From Armatimonadota bacterium (GTDB taxonomy: Bacteria; Armatimonadota; SYMT01), in assembly GCA_046292385.1 (NCBI GenBank), contig JBKBRF010000004.1:224001-288000 (forward strand): a stretch of DNA of 64,000 nucleotides. Direction: 5' to 3'. Below, piece after piece: positions 1 through 63,663 of the stretch. Below the pieces are notes generated by a model. It was not told where the DNA came from and searched no databases. It saw nothing but the letters and a program-made list of their open reading frames with translations. The first letter of the stretch is position 1, and every line of letters begins with the position of its first letter. A program made the position numbers and the translations under genes.

Positions 1-197
1 TCCCGGCGGAATTCCTCGTCCGATTTGTCCGTGCGCGCCATGCCGACGATGGAGAACTGCTCCGGCAGCCGCCGCTCCATGTAGAGGTTCCAGAGGGCGG
101 GAAGCAGCTTGCGGCGGGTGAGGTCGCCCGAAGCACCGAAGATGACGACGGTACAGGGTCCCGGCCGTCGGTTGTCGACCTGGAGAGTGTCCTGCAT
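1..197 (-). CDS. zwf: Glucose-6-phosphate 1-dehydrogenase, N-terminal part (runs off the window edge)
   Basis: Manual translation from ATG at 197 gives [38 protein letters not shown]..., containing the G6PD NADP-binding motif [17 protein letters not shown]. Not in the ORF track because it is truncated. Confidence 0.93.
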
Positions 198-217
198 GGA
201 TGGGTCCTGGCTCAACA

Positions 218-1012
218 TCACTCGGCGGAGCCCTGTCCGATCGCAACGTGATGGAAGCCGCCGTCCACGTGGATGAGCTCGGCGGTGACGCGGCTGGAGA
301 GGTCGCTCAGAAGGTAGAGCGCGGTGTCGGCGACCGCGAAGCGGTCCTCCGTCGAGTTCCAGCCGATCGGCGCGCGCTCCGGCCAGCCCGCCTCCATCCG
401 GACGAAGCCGGGGATATGCGTGGCCGCCATGGTCCGCATCGGCCCGGCGCTCAGGCTGTTGACTCGGATTCCCTGGGGACCGAGATCGCGCGCCAGGTAG
501 CGCGCGGAGGCCTCCAGCGCCGCCTTGCAGACCCCCATCCAGTTGTAGTTGGGGTAGACGTGCTGTGAGTCGAAGGTGAGCGCGATGATCGACCCGCCCC
601 GGGTCATCTTGTGCCGCGCGGCGCCCGCCACGAAGACGAGGCTGGCGGCGCTCACCTCCAGCGCGTAGAGTGCGTCGGCGCGCGGCGCCTCGAACATCGT
701 CTCCTGCAGGCAGGTCTTCGGGTTGGCGTACCCGATGCTGTGCACCAGCCCGTCCAGCGGCGCCTCGATCTGATCGAAGAGCGCGGTGATCTCTTCATCC
801 TTCGCCACGTCGCACGGGATGACCCGGTAGTCGTCCACGCTCAGCCCCTCGGACTTGAACGCGCGCCGCAGCAGCGAGTCGCGGAAGCGCTCGCTCTGCA
901 CCGTGTAGATCACCTCGGCGCCCTGCTCGGCCGCCTTCTGCCCGATCGCCCAGGCGACGCTGCGGGTATCCAGCAGCCCCATCACCAGGATGCGCTTATC
1001 TTTAAGTAGCAT
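218..1012 (-). CDS. fabI: Enoyl-ACP reductase (FabI/InhA-type SDR)
   Basis: Motifs [14 protein letters not shown], catalytic [21 protein letters not shown] and IHVDGG. Confidence 0.92.
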
Positions 1013-57687: not shown

Positions 57688-59502
57688 TCAGTCGTTGACG
57701 CGGAGCACCGACAGGAACGCTTCCTGCGGGATCTCCACGCGGCCGACCGACTTCATCCGCTTCTTCCCTTCCTTCTGCTTCTCCAGCAGCTTGCGCTTCC
57801 GGCTGATGTCACCGCCGTAGCACTTCGCCAGCACGTCCTTGCGGAGCGGGCGGACGCTTTCGGAGGCGATCACCTTGCTGCCGAGCGCGGCCTGGATGCG
57901 GATCTCGAACATCTGCCGGGGCAGGATCTCCTTCAGACGCTCCGCGAGCTGCTTGCCGCGGGCGTAGGCGCGCTCCCGGTGCGTGATGAAGGAGAGGGCG
58001 TCGACCACGTCGCCGTTGATGAGGATGTCCATCTTCACCAGCGGGCTCTCCTTGTAGCCGCACAGCTCGTAGTCGAACGAGGCGTAGCCCTTCGTGCGGC
58101 TCTTCAGGTGGTCGAAGAAGTCCATCAGGATCTCCGCCAGCGGCAGCTCGTAGGAGAGGACGACACGCTCCGTCCCGGAGTACTCCATGTGCTTGAAGAT
58201 GCCGCGCCGGTCGTTGCACAGCTCCATGCAGGCGCCGACGTAGTCTTTCGGCGTGATGACGGTGGCGGCGACGTACGGCTCTTCCACTTTCTCGATCTTC
58301 GGGGTGGGGAGCCAGTGCGCCGGGTTGTCGATCTCGTGGACCGTCCCCGCGCTGTCGGTGACCCGGTAGATCACGGAGGGGGAGGTGGCGATCAGGTCGA
58401 GATCGAACTCGCGCTCCAGCCGCTCCTGGACGATCTCAGAGTGGAGCAGGCCGAGGAAGCCGCAGCGGAAGCCGAAGCCGAGCGCCGCGGAGGTCTCCGG
58501 CTCGAAGACGAGCGCGGAGTCGTTGAGCTGCAGCTTTTGGAGCGCCTCACGCAGGTCCGGGTAGTCCTCGCCGACGACCGGATAGAGGCCGCAGTAGACC
58601 ATCGGCTTTACGGTCTTGTAGCCGGGAAGCGGCTCGGTCGCCCCTCCCGGTCCTGCCACGGTGATCGTGTCGCCGACGCGGCACTCCCCGATCGACTTGA
58701 TCCCCGCGTGGATGTAGCCGGTCTGTCCGGTGGTGAGCCCCTCGGTGGCGCGCATCTCCGGGGCGAAGACGCCGACGCCGAGCACCTCGAACTGGCGTCC
58801 GGTGGCGAGCATCTTGATCTTCTGCCCTGCCTTGATCTCGCCATCGACGACACGGACGTAGGCGACGATCCCCACGTACGGGTCGAAATGGCTGTCGAAG
58901 ATCAGCGCTCGCAGCGGCGCGTCCGGGTCGCCGCTCGGGGGCGGAACTCGCTCGACGACCGCCTCCAGCAGCTCATCGATGCCGATCCCTTCCTTGGCGC
59001 TGACGAGGATGCACTCCTCGCCCGGGATCGCCAGCGACTCCTCGACTTCGTGGACCACGCGCTCCGGGTCGGCGGCGGGGAGGTCGATCTTGTTCAGCGT
59101 GGGGATCAGCGTGAGATTGCTGTTGAGCGCCAGGTTGACGTTGGCGAGGGTCTGCGCCTCTACGCCCTGGGCGGCGTCGACCACCAGGATCGCGCCCTCG
59201 CAGGCGGCGAGCGAGCGGGAGACTTCGTAGGTGAAGTCGACGTGGCCCGGCGTGTCGATCAGGTTCAGCTCGTAAAGCTGACCATCGTTCGCCCGGTAGT
59301 TCATCCGCACCGCGGCCATCTTGATGGTGATGCCGCGCTCCCGCTCCAGGTCCAGCTTGTCGAGCATCTGGTCCTGGTGCGCCTCGCGGCTTACCGTGCC
59401 GGTCACTTCCAGCAGGCGATCGGCCAGGGTCGACTTTCCGTGGTCGATGTGCGCGATGATGCAGAAGTTTCGGATATGCGCTTGTCGATCGCCCTTCGCC
59501 AT
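57688..59502 (-). CDS. lepA: Translation elongation factor 4 (LepA)
   Basis: Motifs [38 protein letters not shown] and [25 protein letters not shown]. Confidence 0.99.
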
Positions 59503-59533
59503 GCTCTACTCCGCCGGGCCCGGGTCCCGTCAT

Positions 59534-59559
59534 GAAAAAAGGGTCGCCGCAGCGACCCT
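59534..59559 (-). terminator. Intrinsic terminator inside the lepA leader
   Basis: Minus strand AGGGTCGC-TGCG-GCGACCCT followed by a T run, ending about 30 nt before the lepA ATG. Confidence 0.7.
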
Positions 59560-59652
59560 CGGTCTATCCGGTGCCGTGGTCCGGCCCAGCCCCCGCGCAG
59601 GGGGAAAGATTTTGGTCCGGGGGCGCGCGGCCGCGCCGGCTCCGGCGGGCGT

Positions 59653-59681
59653 ATTCTAACAGAGCGGGGTAGGGGCGTCAA
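59653..59681 (-). promoter_or_regulatory. Near-consensus sigma70 promoter upstream of lepA
   Basis: TTGACG (59681-76), 17 nt spacer, TAGAAT (59658-53) with an extended TG. Confidence 0.75.
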
Positions 59682-59792
59682 TTGTGACGCGGAGCAAGAT
59701 GGAGCCTGCCGCGGACGCCTCATCGCGCCCTTGGGCTACCGCCAGCGGCAGCGATCAGGCAGCCGTTCTCCGCACAGGCACCACGAGGAGTA

Positions 59793-59821
59793 TTGACACC
59801 TCCCGGAGCGCGTGACATAAT
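59793..59821 (+). promoter_or_regulatory. sigma70 promoter for tRNA-His
   Basis: TTGACA, 17 nt spacer, CATAAT with an extended TG; GC-rich discriminator. Confidence 0.75.
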
Positions 59822-59858
59822 GCGCTGGCTCGCGGGCGGGACGGTCCGCAAGCTCCAC

Positions 59859-59931
59859 GGCGGGTGTAGCTCAGTGGTAGAGCGCCAGGTTGTGGCCCTG
59901 GAGGCCGGGGGTTCAATTCCCCTCATTCGCC
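59859..59931 (+). tRNA. tRNA-His (GUG); CCA not encoded
   Basis: G-1 plus GCGGGTG/CATTCGC acceptor stem with C discriminator; anticodon arm CCAGG-TTGTGGC-CCTGG; T-arm GGGGG-TTCAATT-CCCCT. Confidence 0.96.
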
Positions 59932-59954
59932 CTCAAAACGCCAGTTGCTGATCA

Positions 59955-59996
59955 GCGGCAGAAGCCCCTTCAAACGTGAGGGGCTTCTGCTGTTTT
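59955..59996. terminator. Terminator hairpin between tRNA-His and the convergent chorismate mutase gene
   Basis: GCAGAAGCCCCT / AGGGGCTTCTGC stem followed by TGTTTT. Confidence 0.7.
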
Positions 59997-60003
59997 CTGA
60001 AGC

Positions 60004-60771
60004 TCAGCGCGAGGCCGGCCCCTTATCCCGAGACTGCTCCTGCAGGCGCTGGTGGTTGGCGACCACCGCGTCGAAGATGAGCCGGAAGACTCGCTGGGCG
60101 ACTTCGGGGTCGAGGCCCACGGAGTTTGCCAGGAGGCGGGCGCGCTGGAGCTGGGCGCCCTCCCGGACCTCATCGCGGGCCGGCAAGCCCTGGCGGCTCT
60201 TGAAGACTCCGACCTTCTCCGTGGTGCGGAACCGCTCCGCCAGCAGCCGAACCAGCGCGCCGTCCAGGTTTTCGAGCGATGCCTGGAGGTCGGACAGCTC
60301 GGAGGGGGCTGGTTTCGGGGCGCTCTCGCGATCCGTCCCGGGTGCCCGGTCTCCCGGCCGGAGCAACGCTCCCTCGAGCGCGGTGCGGAAGATGTTGTCT
60401 ACCACCTCCGGATCCAGTCCCACCGGCTTCGCCTGGTCTCTCGCCTTCCGCAGCCGGAGCTTCTCGCCTGCCTCGTCGCGGGCCGGCAGGCCGTGACGGT
60501 GCCGGTACTCGCCGAGCCGCTTCGCCGCGCGGGACTGCTCCGCCAGCAGCCGCAGGAGGACGGCGTCGAGGTTGTCCAATGTGGCCCGGAAGTCGGCCAG
60601 CGAGGGCTGTCCGTCGCTCGCTGCCGGGCTCGGAGGGGCAGCGACGCTGCGGTCCCCATCGGATGCGGGAGAGACACTGATCTGGCCCTGGGCGATGCCG
60701 CCCGGCAGGGTGACGGCCGAGAGCGCGATGACCAGCCAGGAAGCGCGGACGGTGGGGCTAAGACAGTTCAC
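60004..60771 (-). CDS. Exported protein with two tandem AroQ (type II) chorismate mutase domains
   Basis: GAGGAGG RBS before GTG; signal-peptide-like N-terminus; two copies of L.NLD..L.RLLAE...G......GLPARDE..E........GLDPEV. Confidence 0.85.
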   Translation of the reverse strand: MNCLSPTVRASWLVIALSAVTLPGGIAQGQISVSPASDGDRSVAAPPSPAASDGQPSLADFRATLDNLDAVLLRLLAEQSRAAKRLGEYRHRHGLPARDEAGEKLRLRKARDQAKPVGLDPEVVDNIFRTALEGALLRPGDRAPGTDRESAPKPAPSELSDLQASLENLDGALVRLLAERFRTTEKVGVFKSRQGLPARDEVREGAQLQRARLLANSVGLDPEVAQRVFRLIFDAVVANHQRLQEQSRDKGPASR

Positions 60772-60967
60772 AACTCCTCCTCGGGAAACGGCAGCGGGTC
60801 ACCGCAGTTAATCATCACCGCGGCGCTCGACGGTAGTTCCGGCTGGCCGCTCATCGAGCAGTGACGGGCGCGGCAGGAGTTCCGGGGAAGCGGTGCGAAC
60901 GCACCCAGCGAAGCTCCCGCTGCCGCTCACCCCGTGCCCCGGCGCGGGCTCCTACCTTCCACTCCGC

Positions 60968-61867
60968 ATGGCTCTCTGGCTTGGCGCGCTCACGCAGGGA
61001 CTGGCACTGATCTTCCTCGGGTGGGGGATCTACCTCTCGTTCCGCGTGCTCTCCTTCGCCGACATCACGGTCGACGGCAGCTTCACGCTCGGCGCCGTCC
61101 TCTCTGCCGTGCTGGTGGCTGCGGGCGTCCACCCGGCGCTGGCAGTCGGCGCGGGTCTGCTGGGCGGGGCGGCGGCAGGGGCGGTGACGGGTCTGATCCA
61201 CACGTGGCTGCGGGTGAGCGACCTGCTCGCCGGCATTCTCACCCTCACGGCGCTCTACTCGATCACCCTGCGTGTCATGGGGCGCCCGAACGTCTCGCTG
61301 CTCGGAAAGCTCACGCTCCCCGGCTGGCTGCAGAAGCTCGGGATCGCCCCGAGCGACGACGTCGCCGCGCTGGGGCTCTACCTGGGGCTGGCGGTGGCCG
61401 GCGCGATCCTGCTCTCCGCGTTTCTGAAGACCGACGTCGGGCTGGCCCTGCGCGCCACGGGCGACAACCCGGAGATGATCACGGCGCAGGGAGTCGATAT
61501 CTCCCGCACCCGGCTGGCCGGCCTGGCGCTGGCGAATGCCCTGGTCGGCTTCTCCGGGGCGCTCATCGCGCAGTACCAGGGGTTCGCCGATATTCAGATG
61601 GGCATCGGCTCCCTCGTTGCAGGGATCGCCGCCGTGATGATCGGGGAGAGCTTCGTGGGTCGGCGCTCTCCCGCGGTGGTGATCGCCGCCGTGGCGGGTG
61701 GGTCGATCCTGTTCCGGCTCCTGATCGCGCTGGCGCTGCGGCTGGGGCTGAACCCGGTCGATCTCAAGCTGGTGACCGCCGTCTTCGTCCTGGCGATCCT
61801 CGCCGCCGGCCGGCTCCGACTCCGAAAGGGATGGAAGCTGGCGCCCCGGACCGGAGGCGGCGCATGA
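60968..61867 (+). CDS. ABC transporter permease (putative Trp/Tyr-type)
   Basis: Motifs GIYLSFRVL.FADITVDGSF, LLAGIL, GLALRATGDN and QYQGFADI.MGIG. Confidence 0.9.
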   Translation: MALWLGALTQGLALIFLGWGIYLSFRVLSFADITVDGSFTLGAVLSAVLVAAGVHPALAVGAGLLGGAAAGAVTGLIHTWLRVSDLLAGILTLTALYSITLRVMGRPNVSLLGKLTLPGWLQKLGIAPSDDVAALGLYLGLAVAGAILLSAFLKTDVGLALRATGDNPEMITAQGVDISRTRLAGLALANALVGFSGALIAQYQGFADIQMGIGSLVAGIAAVMIGESFVGRRSPAVVIAAVAGGSILFRLLIALALRLGLNPVDLKLVTAVFVLAILAAGRLRLRKGWKLAPRTGGGA

Positions 61868-62640
61868 TCCGCCTCGAATCGGTCTCCTGCCACTTCTCCG
61901 TGCCGGGCTCGCCGCCGGTAGCCGCGCTGCAGGCGCTCGACCTGACCCTCACGGCGGGAGAGTTCGTGACCGTGATCGGGACGAACGGCAGCGGGAAGTC
62001 GACCCTGCTGAACGTCCTGGCCGGCCGCGTCACGCCGGCGGCGGGGGCGGTGTGGCTCGACGACCGGTACGTCACCCGCACGCCGGAGCATGTCCGCGCC
62101 GCCTGGATCGGCCGGGTGTTTCAGAACCCGTTCCAGGGCTCCTGCCCGAACATGACGGTGGAAGAGAACCTGCGCCTGGCGGACCGCCGCGGCCGCCGGC
62201 AGGCACTCCCGGGCCGGGGCGGCGGGGGGCGGCGAGCGCGCTTCCGCGAGGAGCTCGCCAGCCTGGAGCTCGGCCTGGAAGATCGGCTTCACGCCCTGGT
62301 GGGCAGCCTCTCCGGCGGGCAGCGCCAGGCTCTGACGCTGCTGATGGCGACCCTGCGTCCGCCGCGCCTGCTCCTGCTGGACGAGCACACCGCCGCGCTC
62401 GATCCGCGGGCAGCGACCCGCGTGCTGGAGCTGACCCGAGAGCGCGTGGCGGCGCACCAGTTGACCACCCTGATGGTCACCCACAGTATGACACAGGCCC
62501 TTTCGGTGGGCAGCCGGACGATCATGCTGCACCATGGCACGGTAATTGCCGATCTCCTGGGTGTCGAGCGGGCGACCGCTCGGCCGGAGGAGCTGGTCGA
62601 CCGCTTCACCCGCCTCCAGCTCGCAGATCCGGCGCCCTGA
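61864..62640 (+). CDS. ABC transporter ATP-binding subunit
   Basis: Walker A GTNGSGKST, RVFQNP, LSGGQRQAL, LLLDEHTAALDP and VTH; ATGA overlap with the permease. Confidence 0.93.
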   Translation: MIRLESVSCHFSVPGSPPVAALQALDLTLTAGEFVTVIGTNGSGKSTLLNVLAGRVTPAAGAVWLDDRYVTRTPEHVRAAWIGRVFQNPFQGSCPNMTVEENLRLADRRGRRQALPGRGGGGRRARFREELASLELGLEDRLHALVGSLSGGQRQALTLLMATLRPPRLLLLDEHTAALDPRAATRVLELTRERVAAHQLTTLMVTHSMTQALSVGSRTIMLHHGTVIADLLGVERATARPEELVDRFTRLQLADPAP

Positions 62641-62673
62641 GCCTCTGCCACTCTACTCTCTACTTCCACGCCC

Positions 62674-63663
62674 ATGCATCGACGAGACCTACTCACCACC
62701 CTGTTCGGTGCGGGCCTGGCGCTGCCGCTCCTCGGCGGCTGCAGCGGCGGCGGCTCGGCGGGCGATCTGCCGAAAGTCGGCGTCGTCGCCTACGGACCGG
62801 ATCCGACGACCGACATCACCGTGGAAGGCCTGAAGGAGGGGCTGCGCGCCGCCGGGTTCGAGCCGGGAAAGGCTGTGCAGGTGGAATACCAGGACGCCCA
62901 GGGCGATCAGAGCCTCATTCCGCAGATCGTGCAGAAGTACGTCTCGGAAGGGGTCCGGGTCATCGTGCCCATGACCACGCCGTGCCTGGTGGCGACCGCG
63001 AACGCGCTGAAGAACAGCGACCAGCCGGTCGTCTTCACGGAGGTCTTCAACCCGTATGCCGCGGGAGTGGCGCGCTCGTCGACCGATCACCCTGCCAACC
63101 TGACCGGAGTCGCCTCTCCGCCCCCGGCTAAGGAGCTCCTCGATCTGATCCTGGAGCTCCAGCCGCAGGCGAAGACGATCGGCACGATCTACAACGCGGG
63201 CGAGGCGAACTCCGTCTCGGCGGTCGAACGCCTACGTGAGGCGGCCGCGGCCGGCGGGCTGAAGCTGGTCGAGCGGACCGTTGCCGGCTCGATCGAGGTT
63301 CAGCAGGCGGCGCAGTCGCTGGTGGAGGAGGTCGCCGCCGTCTGTATTCCGGGGGACAACACCGTACAGGCGGCCCTCGATGCCCTGGTCGGGCCGGCGC
63401 AGAAGGCGCGCGTACCGGTCGTAGCCGGGAACCCCGCGTGGATCGAGCAGGGGATGCTTGCCTGCCTGGGGCCGGACTTCCGGAACGCCGGTAAGGAGGC
63501 GGGGGAGATGGTGGCGGCGGTCCTGAACGGGGAGAGTCCCGCCGGCATGCCGATCCGCGAGACGGAGAAGCAGGAGCTGCTCCTCAACCGCAAAGTTGCC
63601 ACGGCGCTGGGCATCGCGTTTTCGGAGGCGCTCGCCGCCCGAGCGGACCGTGTCATCGAGTAG
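62674..63663 (+). CDS. ABC transporter substrate-binding lipoprotein (ABC_sub_bind, aromatic amino acid type)
   Basis: RRDLL Tat-like leader and LGGC lipobox; motifs DAQGDQS, TTP, PVVFT, NLTGV, IYNAGEANS and GDN. Confidence 0.88.
   Translation: MHRRDLLTTLFGAGLALPLLGGCSGGGSAGDLPKVGVVAYGPDPTTDITVEGLKEGLRAAGFEPGKAVQVEYQDAQGDQSLIPQIVQKYVSEGVRVIVPMTTPCLVATANALKNSDQPVVFTEVFNPYAAGVARSSTDHPANLTGVASPPPAKELLDLILELQPQAKTIGTIYNAGEANSVSAVERLREAAAAGGLKLVERTVAGSIEVQQAAQSLVEEVAAVCIPGDNTVQAALDALVGPAQKARVPVVAGNPAWIEQGMLACLGPDFRNAGKEAGEMVAAVLNGESPAGMPIRETEKQELLLNRKVATALGIAFSEALAARADRVIE

Follow-up and report, generated by a model that had tools for sequence, protein, structure and literature searches.

The gene analysed here lies on the minus strand of a 64,000-nucleotide stretch of DNA from an Armatimonadota bacterium (contig JBKBRF010000004.1, positions 224,001 to 288,000; this whole stretch is called the window below) and encodes a protein with two chorismate mutase domains of the AroQ type in tandem, referred to as D1 and D2 (Table 1). 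We consider it likely that the protein is an exported single-chain chorismate mutase that folds as a six-helix pseudo-dimer with one catalytic pocket, formed by D2 together with Arg62 of D1, and that it originated from an independent duplication within clade E of the AroQ enzymes.

Two stretches of the protein match the Pfam family CM_2 (PF01817; E 2.3e-31, 108.3 bits against a cut-off of 27). In agreement with the first-pass annotation of this locus, which had described an exported tandem chorismate mutase with a proline-rich linker, they are joined by a linker of this kind that is 20 residues long, and a signal-peptide-like N-terminus suggests export. The 11-residue hydrophobic core of this N-terminus has a mean Kyte-Doolittle value of 2.32, and the layout of charged n-region, hydrophobic core and A-x-G is found by eye and hydropathy in 5/5 members of the family described below. 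It is followed by a spacer, residues 30-55, which differs in sequence and length among homologs and is probably disordered according to the structural model. The whole protein passes both clade E equivalog models, NF006691 of NCBIfam (140.5 bits, cut-off 120) and TIGR01795 'CM_mono_cladeE' (121.8 bits, cut-off 107.55), because the scores of the two domains sum; a single-domain relative, P0006, reaches 100.7 and 90.1. The AroQ-gamma model TIGR01806 is failed (60.8, cut-off 74.15; 35.5 for D2 alone). Judged by these profiles, both halves are clade E-like. They can be aligned without gaps at an offset of 101 residues, with 37/85 residues (44%) and 151/243 nucleotides identical, and are still clearly alike, as had been claimed.

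In the AroQ dimer each active site draws on both subunits: one contributes Arg11 with the front half of its helix 1, the other its helices 1b, 2 and 3. We numbered the residues through an ungapped phmmer alignment of query residues 159-250 with residues 7-98 of the 1ECM chain, so that a D2 residue equals the E. coli number plus 152; D1 aligns gap-free with D2 and with all homologous domains. In this register D1 has R62, Q79, R90, D99, G102 and E103 at E. coli positions 11, 28, 39, 48, 51 and 52, and its helix 3 stops at residue 136 in the AlphaFold2 model, and D2 has Q163, R180, K191, D200, R203, E204, V236 and H240 at positions 11, 28, 39, 48, 51, 52, 84 and 88. The protein therefore holds one complete AroQ catalytic set, R62 from D1 plus R180, K191, D200, R203 and E204 from D2, and a second set that is incomplete. 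The manual count in the first-pass annotation is reproduced at each of these positions that it named (Arg11 kept, Gln28, Arg39, Gly51 and a short last helix in D1; Gln11 with Arg28, Lys39, Asp48, Arg51 and Glu52 kept in D2). Its His88 in D2 was also read correctly but is not a loss: in our clade alignment A1 (60 rows) His88 occurs in 60/60 rows and is a trait of the clade, together with Val84 (57/60) and the invariant Arg28 and Arg51. Both His88 and Val84 are also present in the solved relative 3RMI and missing from D1. Arg11, on the other hand, is found in 57/60 rows of A1, the sole three exceptions being D2 of the window protein (P0001) and of its tandem homologs P0004 and P0005, and it is kept in 56/56 single-domain proteins of the alignment, which indicates that the loss of Arg11 is confined to proteins in which a fused D1 can provide this residue.

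Near-identical DNA of this gene was found in soil and root metagenome contigs from three other studies, and the linker is bridged by contig pieces from two runs of two studies (X2 record 7, 0 differences; X4 record 15, 1 difference). An assembly artefact is therefore an unlikely source of the tandem gene, since contigs from two other studies span the inter-domain linker. The metagenome variants listed fall outside the catalytic positions, and none is listed in runs X2-X4 for the codons of Q79 and Q163.

The reciprocal pattern can be followed through the set of four tandem proteins, which consists of the window protein, P0003, P0004 and P0005. D1 retains Arg11 in 4/4, has Arg in place of Lys39 in 4/4, has lost Arg51 in 4/4 (G, G, W, A) and ends in a short helix 3 in 4/4; the full set of D2 pocket residues is likewise kept in 4/4, and position 11 of D2 is Q, R, E and Q, meaning that Arg is lost in 3/4. 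The homologs keep the reciprocal pattern, which the first-pass annotation had named as a check, and the counts support its proposal of a single functional site, as far as conservation can speak for function. For the suggestion that the second site might be 'regulatory' we find no support, its pocket residues varying between homologs.

Conservation is also unevenly distributed along the helices. Among the four homologs no other segment of the protein is as conserved as the first half of helix 1 in D1 (H1a), where 18/23 positions are invariant, as compared with 3/15 in H1b, 4/24 in H2 and 6/19 in H3 (13/66 for D1 outside helix 1a); for D2 the corresponding counts are 12/23, 9/15, 18/24 and 13/19. 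To judge from these positions, the conserved pieces, H1a of D1 with H1b, H2 and H3 of D2, sum to exactly one AroQ site and the other site has decayed. The ratio of nonsynonymous to synonymous substitution rates (dN/dS), roughly estimated between P0001 and P0003, is 0.26 for D1, 0.13 for D2 and 1.14 for the linker. Because of the segment conservation and the D1 ratio, D1 appears to be maintained mostly as a partner and arginine donor.

These data also bear on a different view, in which a homodimer of D2 is the enzyme and D1 is accessory or decaying and takes no catalytic part. D2 does hold a whole pocket and superposes by itself on the E. coli enzyme (see below), and in P0003 it retains Arg at position 11. 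Yet a D2-D2 site would carry Gln, Glu or Gln for Arg11 in 3/4 tandem proteins, at a position where the 56 single-domain proteins all have Arg, and both the conservation of D1 helix 1a and the purifying selection indicated by the D1 ratio speak against this view. In the secreted chorismate mutase of M. tuberculosis, replacement of the analogous arginine (R134L) lowers kcat/Km by 4 orders of magnitude (PMC12329711; this source, PMC10520331 and PMC5986790 are cited throughout for the parts accessible to us), and thus a D2-D2 pairing with Gln163 is expected to be nearly dead. We regard the D2 homodimer as extremely unlikely.

The predicted fold agrees with a pairing of D1 and D2. AlphaFold2, run on the 60-row alignment, returned a six-helix model (helices in Table 1) with a predicted local distance difference test score (pLDDT) of 84 and a predicted template modelling score (pTM) of 0.76. 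In a comparison of this model with 48,161 chains by VIA-align, all 13 chains with Z >= 8 were chorismate mutases and the next best match had a Z of 7.4; Foldseek by itself gave a less clear picture, with nothing at E <= 0.001 (best 2.7e-3). The whole model matches 2fp2_B over both domains (Z 12.6, root-mean-square deviation (rmsd) 3.5, 154 aligned residues) and 3csm_A (Z 11.8, rmsd 3.1, 162 aligned; model 55..250 on chain 7..256), and D2 matches 1ecm_A with an rmsd of 0.9 A over 91 residues and 3RMI with an rmsd of 1.0 and 40% identity over 94 aligned columns. From the ESM Atlas's own model (pTM 0.68), 164 residues (52-236) align to a chorismate mutase cluster of 198 amino acids. When D1 and D2 were given as separate chains, the interface score ipSAE was 0.84 (median of three runs) and that of the best of 3 controls 0.00, a mark of 0.84 being reached by 116/157 solved complexes and 2/215 mismatched pairs; contact agreement was at least 94% and partner pLDDT at least 86 in these runs. 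The two-chain prediction places helix 1 of D1 antiparallel to helix 1 of D2 (180 with 68, 169 with 79, 176 with 72), and its confident interface contains F61-R62 plus 186-187 and 190, adjoining Lys191. The AlphaFold2 model, the ESM Atlas model and the two-chain prediction thus all give an AroQ-like six-helix pseudo-dimer, consistent with the intramolecular heterodimer that had been proposed.

The same chemistry could also be obtained between chains, with D1 of one chain pairing with D2 of another in a dimer that has two live and two dead pockets. The prediction with separate chains passes equally well under this arrangement, its interface being silent on pairing within versus between chains, and the solved AroQ-gamma enzyme is itself a homodimer of six-helix protomers (PMC10520331, in part). 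Against this, the single-chain AlphaFold2 model closes intramolecularly, at the pTM of 0.76 given above, and the 20-residue linker matches the length of the same within-chain loop in the solved AroQ-gamma structures. Indeed, a single 2-residue gap is enough to align the linker with the loop that connects H3 and H4 in the secreted chorismate mutase of M. tuberculosis (AroQ-gamma), indicating that its length suffices for an intramolecular connection. On balance, we find pairing between chains unlikely.

From the architecture, the residue pattern, the conservation and the predicted fold documented above we infer the following course of events for an exported pseudo-dimer with one pocket. The protein would be exported by the Sec route and its signal cleaved near residue 29, after which the two AroQ domains would fold back onto each other, within one chain and not swapped, into a single six-helix bundle equivalent to the AroQ homodimer. 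The pocket active as chorismate mutase would consist of Arg180, Lys191, Asp200, Arg203, Glu204, Val236 and His240 of D2, completed by Arg62 of helix 1 in D1. Its counterpart, made of the D1 body and Gln163 of D2, would be decayed and inactive, and D1 would survive chiefly as structural partner and donor of the arginine. The duplication itself would have taken place inside an exported branch of clade E AroQ, independently of the AroQ-gamma and AroQ-beta events.

We think it very unlikely that the in vivo role of the protein is something other than that of a chorismate mutase, whether the binding or sensing of chorismate, prephenate or a related dicarboxylate in the periplasm or an isochorismate-pyruvate lyase activity. 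Such a role would fit with the gene adjoining a TrpX-like importer and with the signalling function that has been proposed for exported chorismate mutases (PMC10520331, in part); in addition, the activity label of the His88 clade is drawn from a model name. However, the full catalytic set of D2 is kept in 4/4 homologs, the isochorismate-pyruvate lyase model NF005475 (PchB type) is failed by a wide gap (39.1 for the whole protein, cut-off 126), and position 52 is Glu, the residue prevailing in dedicated chorismate mutases, and not Val as in PchB (PMC12329711, in part).

The family to which the protein belongs is extremely small. A word-indexed search of 5.8 billion clusters (8000 candidates scored) returned five proteins, the window's own included: the three tandem homologs P0003, P0004 and P0005, which are 63%, 54% and 52% identical to it, and P0006, a 143-amino-acid single-domain relative with a signal peptide resembling that of P0001. 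Altogether, about 15 billion proteins contain five members of the family. When 1.84 billion representatives were searched exhaustively with HMMER, there were 1713 matches at E <= 0.001 and only 3 at E <= 1e-30, and a search seeded with P0006 gave nothing new above 52% identity. Among 40 related genomes no match had an E value below 2e-6 (0/40), and none of 400 genomes of the phylum went beyond a single-domain match of 36-45 bits of the P-protein type (0/400). A pattern scan with the tandem alignment across 185,579 species genomes gave 178 pattern matches and no relative, and a metagenome scan with the same alignment returned solely the 1401-bp contig of P0003 itself.

A tree of 66 domains groups all four D1 and all four D2 domains with P0006 as a single clade (support 100/98) nested in clade E. 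The D1 domains are themselves a clade (100/99) with long branches, and P0006 groups with them (99/87), an arrangement against which the approximately unbiased (AU) test does not reject a grouping of the eight tandem domains (p 0.34). The sequences point to one duplication before the four tandem lineages split, with decay of the D1 pocket on the stem and a later loss of Arg11 in D2 that differs from homolog to homolog. P0006 may predate the duplication, have lost its D2 or be an unfused paralog. The earlier suggestion of an independent, recent parallel to AroQ-gamma therefore holds with regard to independence, for which the clade E best models, the nine-domain clade and the opposite site speak, but 'recent' can be meant in relative terms only, since the duplication predates lineages that are now 51-63% identical.

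Several points weigh against our interpretation. Export was called by eye and from hydropathy, and the spacing between the Shine-Dalgarno-like element and the GTG start is short. Taken alone, both domains stay under the clade E equivalog cut-offs (NF006691 96.2 and TIGR01795 84.3 for D2; 50.2 and 45.4 for D1), and the clade E chorismate mutase label itself (Val84/His88 type) is an NCBIfam name and not a published activity that we met in reading. On the structural side, the alignment of D1 is 4 to 7 rows deep, the predicted placement of Arg62 in the D2 pocket derives from contact lists and alignment ranges and not from measured distances, and the solved AroQ homodimers may have let both predictors recall a dimer, in which case a pass would mean likeness and not binding. 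The conservation counts come from n=4 sequences, and the dN/dS values from one pair with a dS of about 1, which is near saturation and makes them rough. Finally, some members may have a second pocket that is not wholly dead, given that P0003 carries Arg both at position 11 of D2 and at position 28 of D1.

With regard to its possible role, the gene is divergent from a putative aromatic-compound importer of the ATP-binding cassette (ABC) type (Table 1), whose binding protein has a full-length match to the TrpX model NF041285 that scores 224.5 bits and remains under the cut-off of 390. The position of such an importer beside an exported chorismate mutase is suggestive of a possible functional link. 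Genes for transporters and binding proteins are also described near other exported chorismate mutases, for which signalling roles have been proposed (PMC10520331, in part). The genome has, in addition, one open frame for a chorismate mutase-prephenate dehydratase (CM-PDT) and one prephenate dehydrogenase, which suggests that the chorismate mutase in the window is an extra and not the housekeeping enzyme, in parallel to the producers of exported fusions of chorismate mutase with CDT (CM-CDT; PMC10520331, in part). We give little credence to a more far-reaching idea, according to which the five-sequence family is a living intermediate on the path from homodimer to single chain proposed for AroQ-beta and AroQ-gamma, the decayed pocket (with D1 invariant Tyr89-Arg90 and Asp99) has been recruited for ligand sensing or regulation, and the exported enzyme works with the TrpX-like importer in the periplasmic capture or sensing of chorismate-derived compounds.

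The base composition of the gene (GC 71.2%, GC at third codon positions 86%) is like that of the neighbouring genes, and on this composition a recent horizontal transfer was rejected. For LepA, the best match among named genomes is to a Chthonomonadales MAG at 69%, a hint of Armatimonadota and no more. A promoter scan found no sigma-70-like promoter upstream of the gene, and Rfam returned tRNA-His and no other RNA element over 59400-61100. On the soil-metagenome contig from run X4 (depth 3.35) a 2-nucleotide insertion at 60773 widens the spacer between the Shine-Dalgarno-like element and the GTG, which at this low depth may be an error; the same contig has the signal-peptide changes C3R and S5N. 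At the other end of the gene, the hairpin and a T-run span 59958-59998, and 14 nucleotides separate the hairpin from the convergent stop of the chorismate mutase gene. This hairpin, which may terminate both tRNA-His and the chorismate mutase gene, is absent from the output of a consensus terminator scan.

Table 1. Features of the tandem chorismate mutase gene and its surroundings, in positions of the window.
Feature	Position	Strand	Details
tRNA-His (GTG)	59860-59932	+	followed by the hairpin
GC-rich hairpin, 12 bp	59958..59990	.	between tRNA-His (+) and 3' end of chorismate mutase gene (-); read from sequence
Whole chorismate mutase gene	60004..60771	-	255 codons plus TGA stop, GTG start; Pfam CM_2 twice
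D2, residues 157-249	60025..60303	-	catalytic set complete except Gln163; helices 156-193, 201-217, 222-249
Gln163 codon (D2 position 11)	60283..60285	-	Arg in 57/60 clade sequences
Pro-rich inter-domain linker, residues 137-156 (20 residues)	60304..60363	-	pLDDT 65-80
D1, residues 56-136	60364..60606	-	degenerate AroQ domain, retains Arg62; helices 58-92, 100-117, 121-136
Arg62 codon (= Arg11)	60586..60588	-	proposed donor to D2 pocket; invariant in 4/4 tandem proteins; confident interface residue
Pro/Ser/Ala-rich spacer, residues 30-55	60607..60684	-	pLDDT block means 58 (31-40), 67 (41-50)
Signal-peptide-like N-terminus, residues 1-29	60685..60771	-	Arg9, core WLVIALSAVTL, then A-Q-G before Q30
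Shine-Dalgarno-like GAGGAGGAG	60774..60782	-	2 nt ahead of GTG; read from sequence
ABC importer: permease, ATPase, TrpX-like binding protein	60893..63663	+	divergent; Pfam BPD_transp_2, ABC_tran, ABC_sub_bind

One route often invoked for enzyme evolution leads from a homodimer with two shared sites, through duplication and fusion, to a single chain in which one of the sites decays. For chorismate mutase this route has been inferred from structures of AroQ-gamma and AroQ-beta, the halves of which are far more diverged than the 44% identity seen here. In the present family the order of the steps can be read, the D1 pocket having been lost first (4/4) and the loss of Arg11 in D2 being in progress (R, Q, E, Q), and the site that survives mirrors the AroQ-gamma site. 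For protein engineering, the protein offers a minimal single-chain AroQ scaffold that occurs in nature and whose two pockets are asymmetric. Furthermore, it is a probable exported chorismate mutase that does not belong to AroQ-gamma and comes from a non-pathogenic bacterium of soil and hot springs, and it bears on the question of the function that such exported enzymes have.

Among the known systems, AroQ-gamma (2FP2/2F6L, 2GBB; TIGR01806) has the traits predicted for the window protein, a signal peptide and a single chain that mimics the AroQ dimer with six helices and one active site. The window protein is co-linear with it from D1 into helix 1 of D2, and in P0003, too, the match to the gamma profile extends from D1 into helix 1 of D2. 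A duplication origin of the AroQ-gamma fold was reportedly proposed by Qamra et al. in the title of a 2006 paper. As in nine organisms of PMC10520331 (in part), the genome also encodes a cytoplasmic CM-PDT. The two differ in the choice of the site. In AroQ-gamma it lies in the N-terminal moiety and comprises Arg49, Lys60, Asp69, Arg72, Thr105, Glu106 and Glu109, with Arg134 coming from helix 4 (PMC10520331, in part). A co-linear phmmer alignment of residues 72-179 with 2F6L equates Arg49 with Q79, Lys60 with R90, Asp69 with D99 and Arg72 with G102, and the helix-4 arginine of 2GBB, the enzyme from Yersinia, corresponds to Q163. The catalytic positions of AroQ-gamma are thus the degenerate ones here (Q79, R90, G102, Q163), whereas the probable live pocket of the window protein is C-terminal, indicating that it kept the opposite pseudo-symmetric site. 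This opposite order of sites, together with the clade E affiliation of both domains, argues for a duplication independent of AroQ-gamma. The halves also differ from those of AroQ-gamma in being still 44% identical, and the mature protein is free of Cys and has no disulfide, its sole Cys being residue 3 in the signal peptide; the C-terminal disulfide is, however, not conserved in all gamma domains either (PMC10520331, in part).

AroQ-beta (3CSM, 1CSM) is likewise a one-chain mimic of the AroQ dimer and shares the order found here, with an arginine of the N-terminal helix and a C-terminal pocket; in the yeast enzyme Arg16 joins Arg157, Lys168, Asn194 and Glu198 (PMC5986790, in part). It differs in being cytoplasmic and larger, with chains of about 250 residues as compared with six helices in about 195 residues in the window protein. 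AroQ-beta has allosteric sites through which Trp and Tyr regulate it (PMC10520331, in part), whereas the second-pocket residues vary among homologs here, with no sign of a conserved second ligand site. The monofunctional AroQ of clade E (TIGR01795 / NF006691; 3RMI) provides the best models for both domains, and D2 has the His88 and Val84 of this clade, but its members are single-domain chains of about 90-115 amino acids and not two fused copies with a signal peptide. Five single-domain clade E chorismate mutases (P0192, P0226, P0232, P0197 and P0071) have hydrophobic or lipoprotein-like N-termini, for example with a Cys after L-S-A or L-A-A, and their sequences suggest that exported AroQ outside AroQ-gamma may be commoner than the literature consulted implies. 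The engineered mMjCM (2GTV) shares the single chain with one complete AroQ-type site, and 104/104 of its residues align to 54..250 of the model (Z 9.2, rmsd 2.7). It is said to have been made by inserting a loop into helix 1. It is a laboratory construct (PDB title; glossary of PMC12329711, in part), whereas the window protein occurs in nature and has retained an entire second domain.

Among the best 150 HMMER representatives (of 1713), 6 are tandem. Other proteins with two CM_2 domains per chain exist (P0120, P0057, P0101 and P0103; P0022; P0113). They are 28-37% identical to the window protein and most are without a signal peptide. P0120, P0057, P0101 and P0103 make up a separate tandem CM_2 family of about 200 amino acids, mostly without a signal peptide, in which Arg11 of D1 is invariant and position 11 of D2 is R/K/N/R; the model of P0120 (pLDDT 85, pTM 0.80) is a six-helix pseudo-dimer that matches 2fp2_B with Z 13.0 and rmsd 2.9 over 148 aligned residues. 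Both domains of P0022, the one tandem protein from outside the family included in the tree, fall outside the nine-domain clade. In P0113, the best NCBIfam models of which are archaeal-type chorismate mutase families, each of the two copies retains positions 11 to 52; the aligned match does not include the end of helix 3. The sequences of P0022 and P0113 suggest that tandem duplications of chorismate mutase recur. The literature searched, in which most subscription journals were not covered, contained no account of AroQ proteins that are naturally tandem or pseudo-dimeric. Tandem CM_2 proteins as such are thus not unique; what sets the present family apart is the combination of probable export, an origin within clade E, halves that are still alike, reciprocal decay and a choice of site opposite to that of AroQ-gamma.

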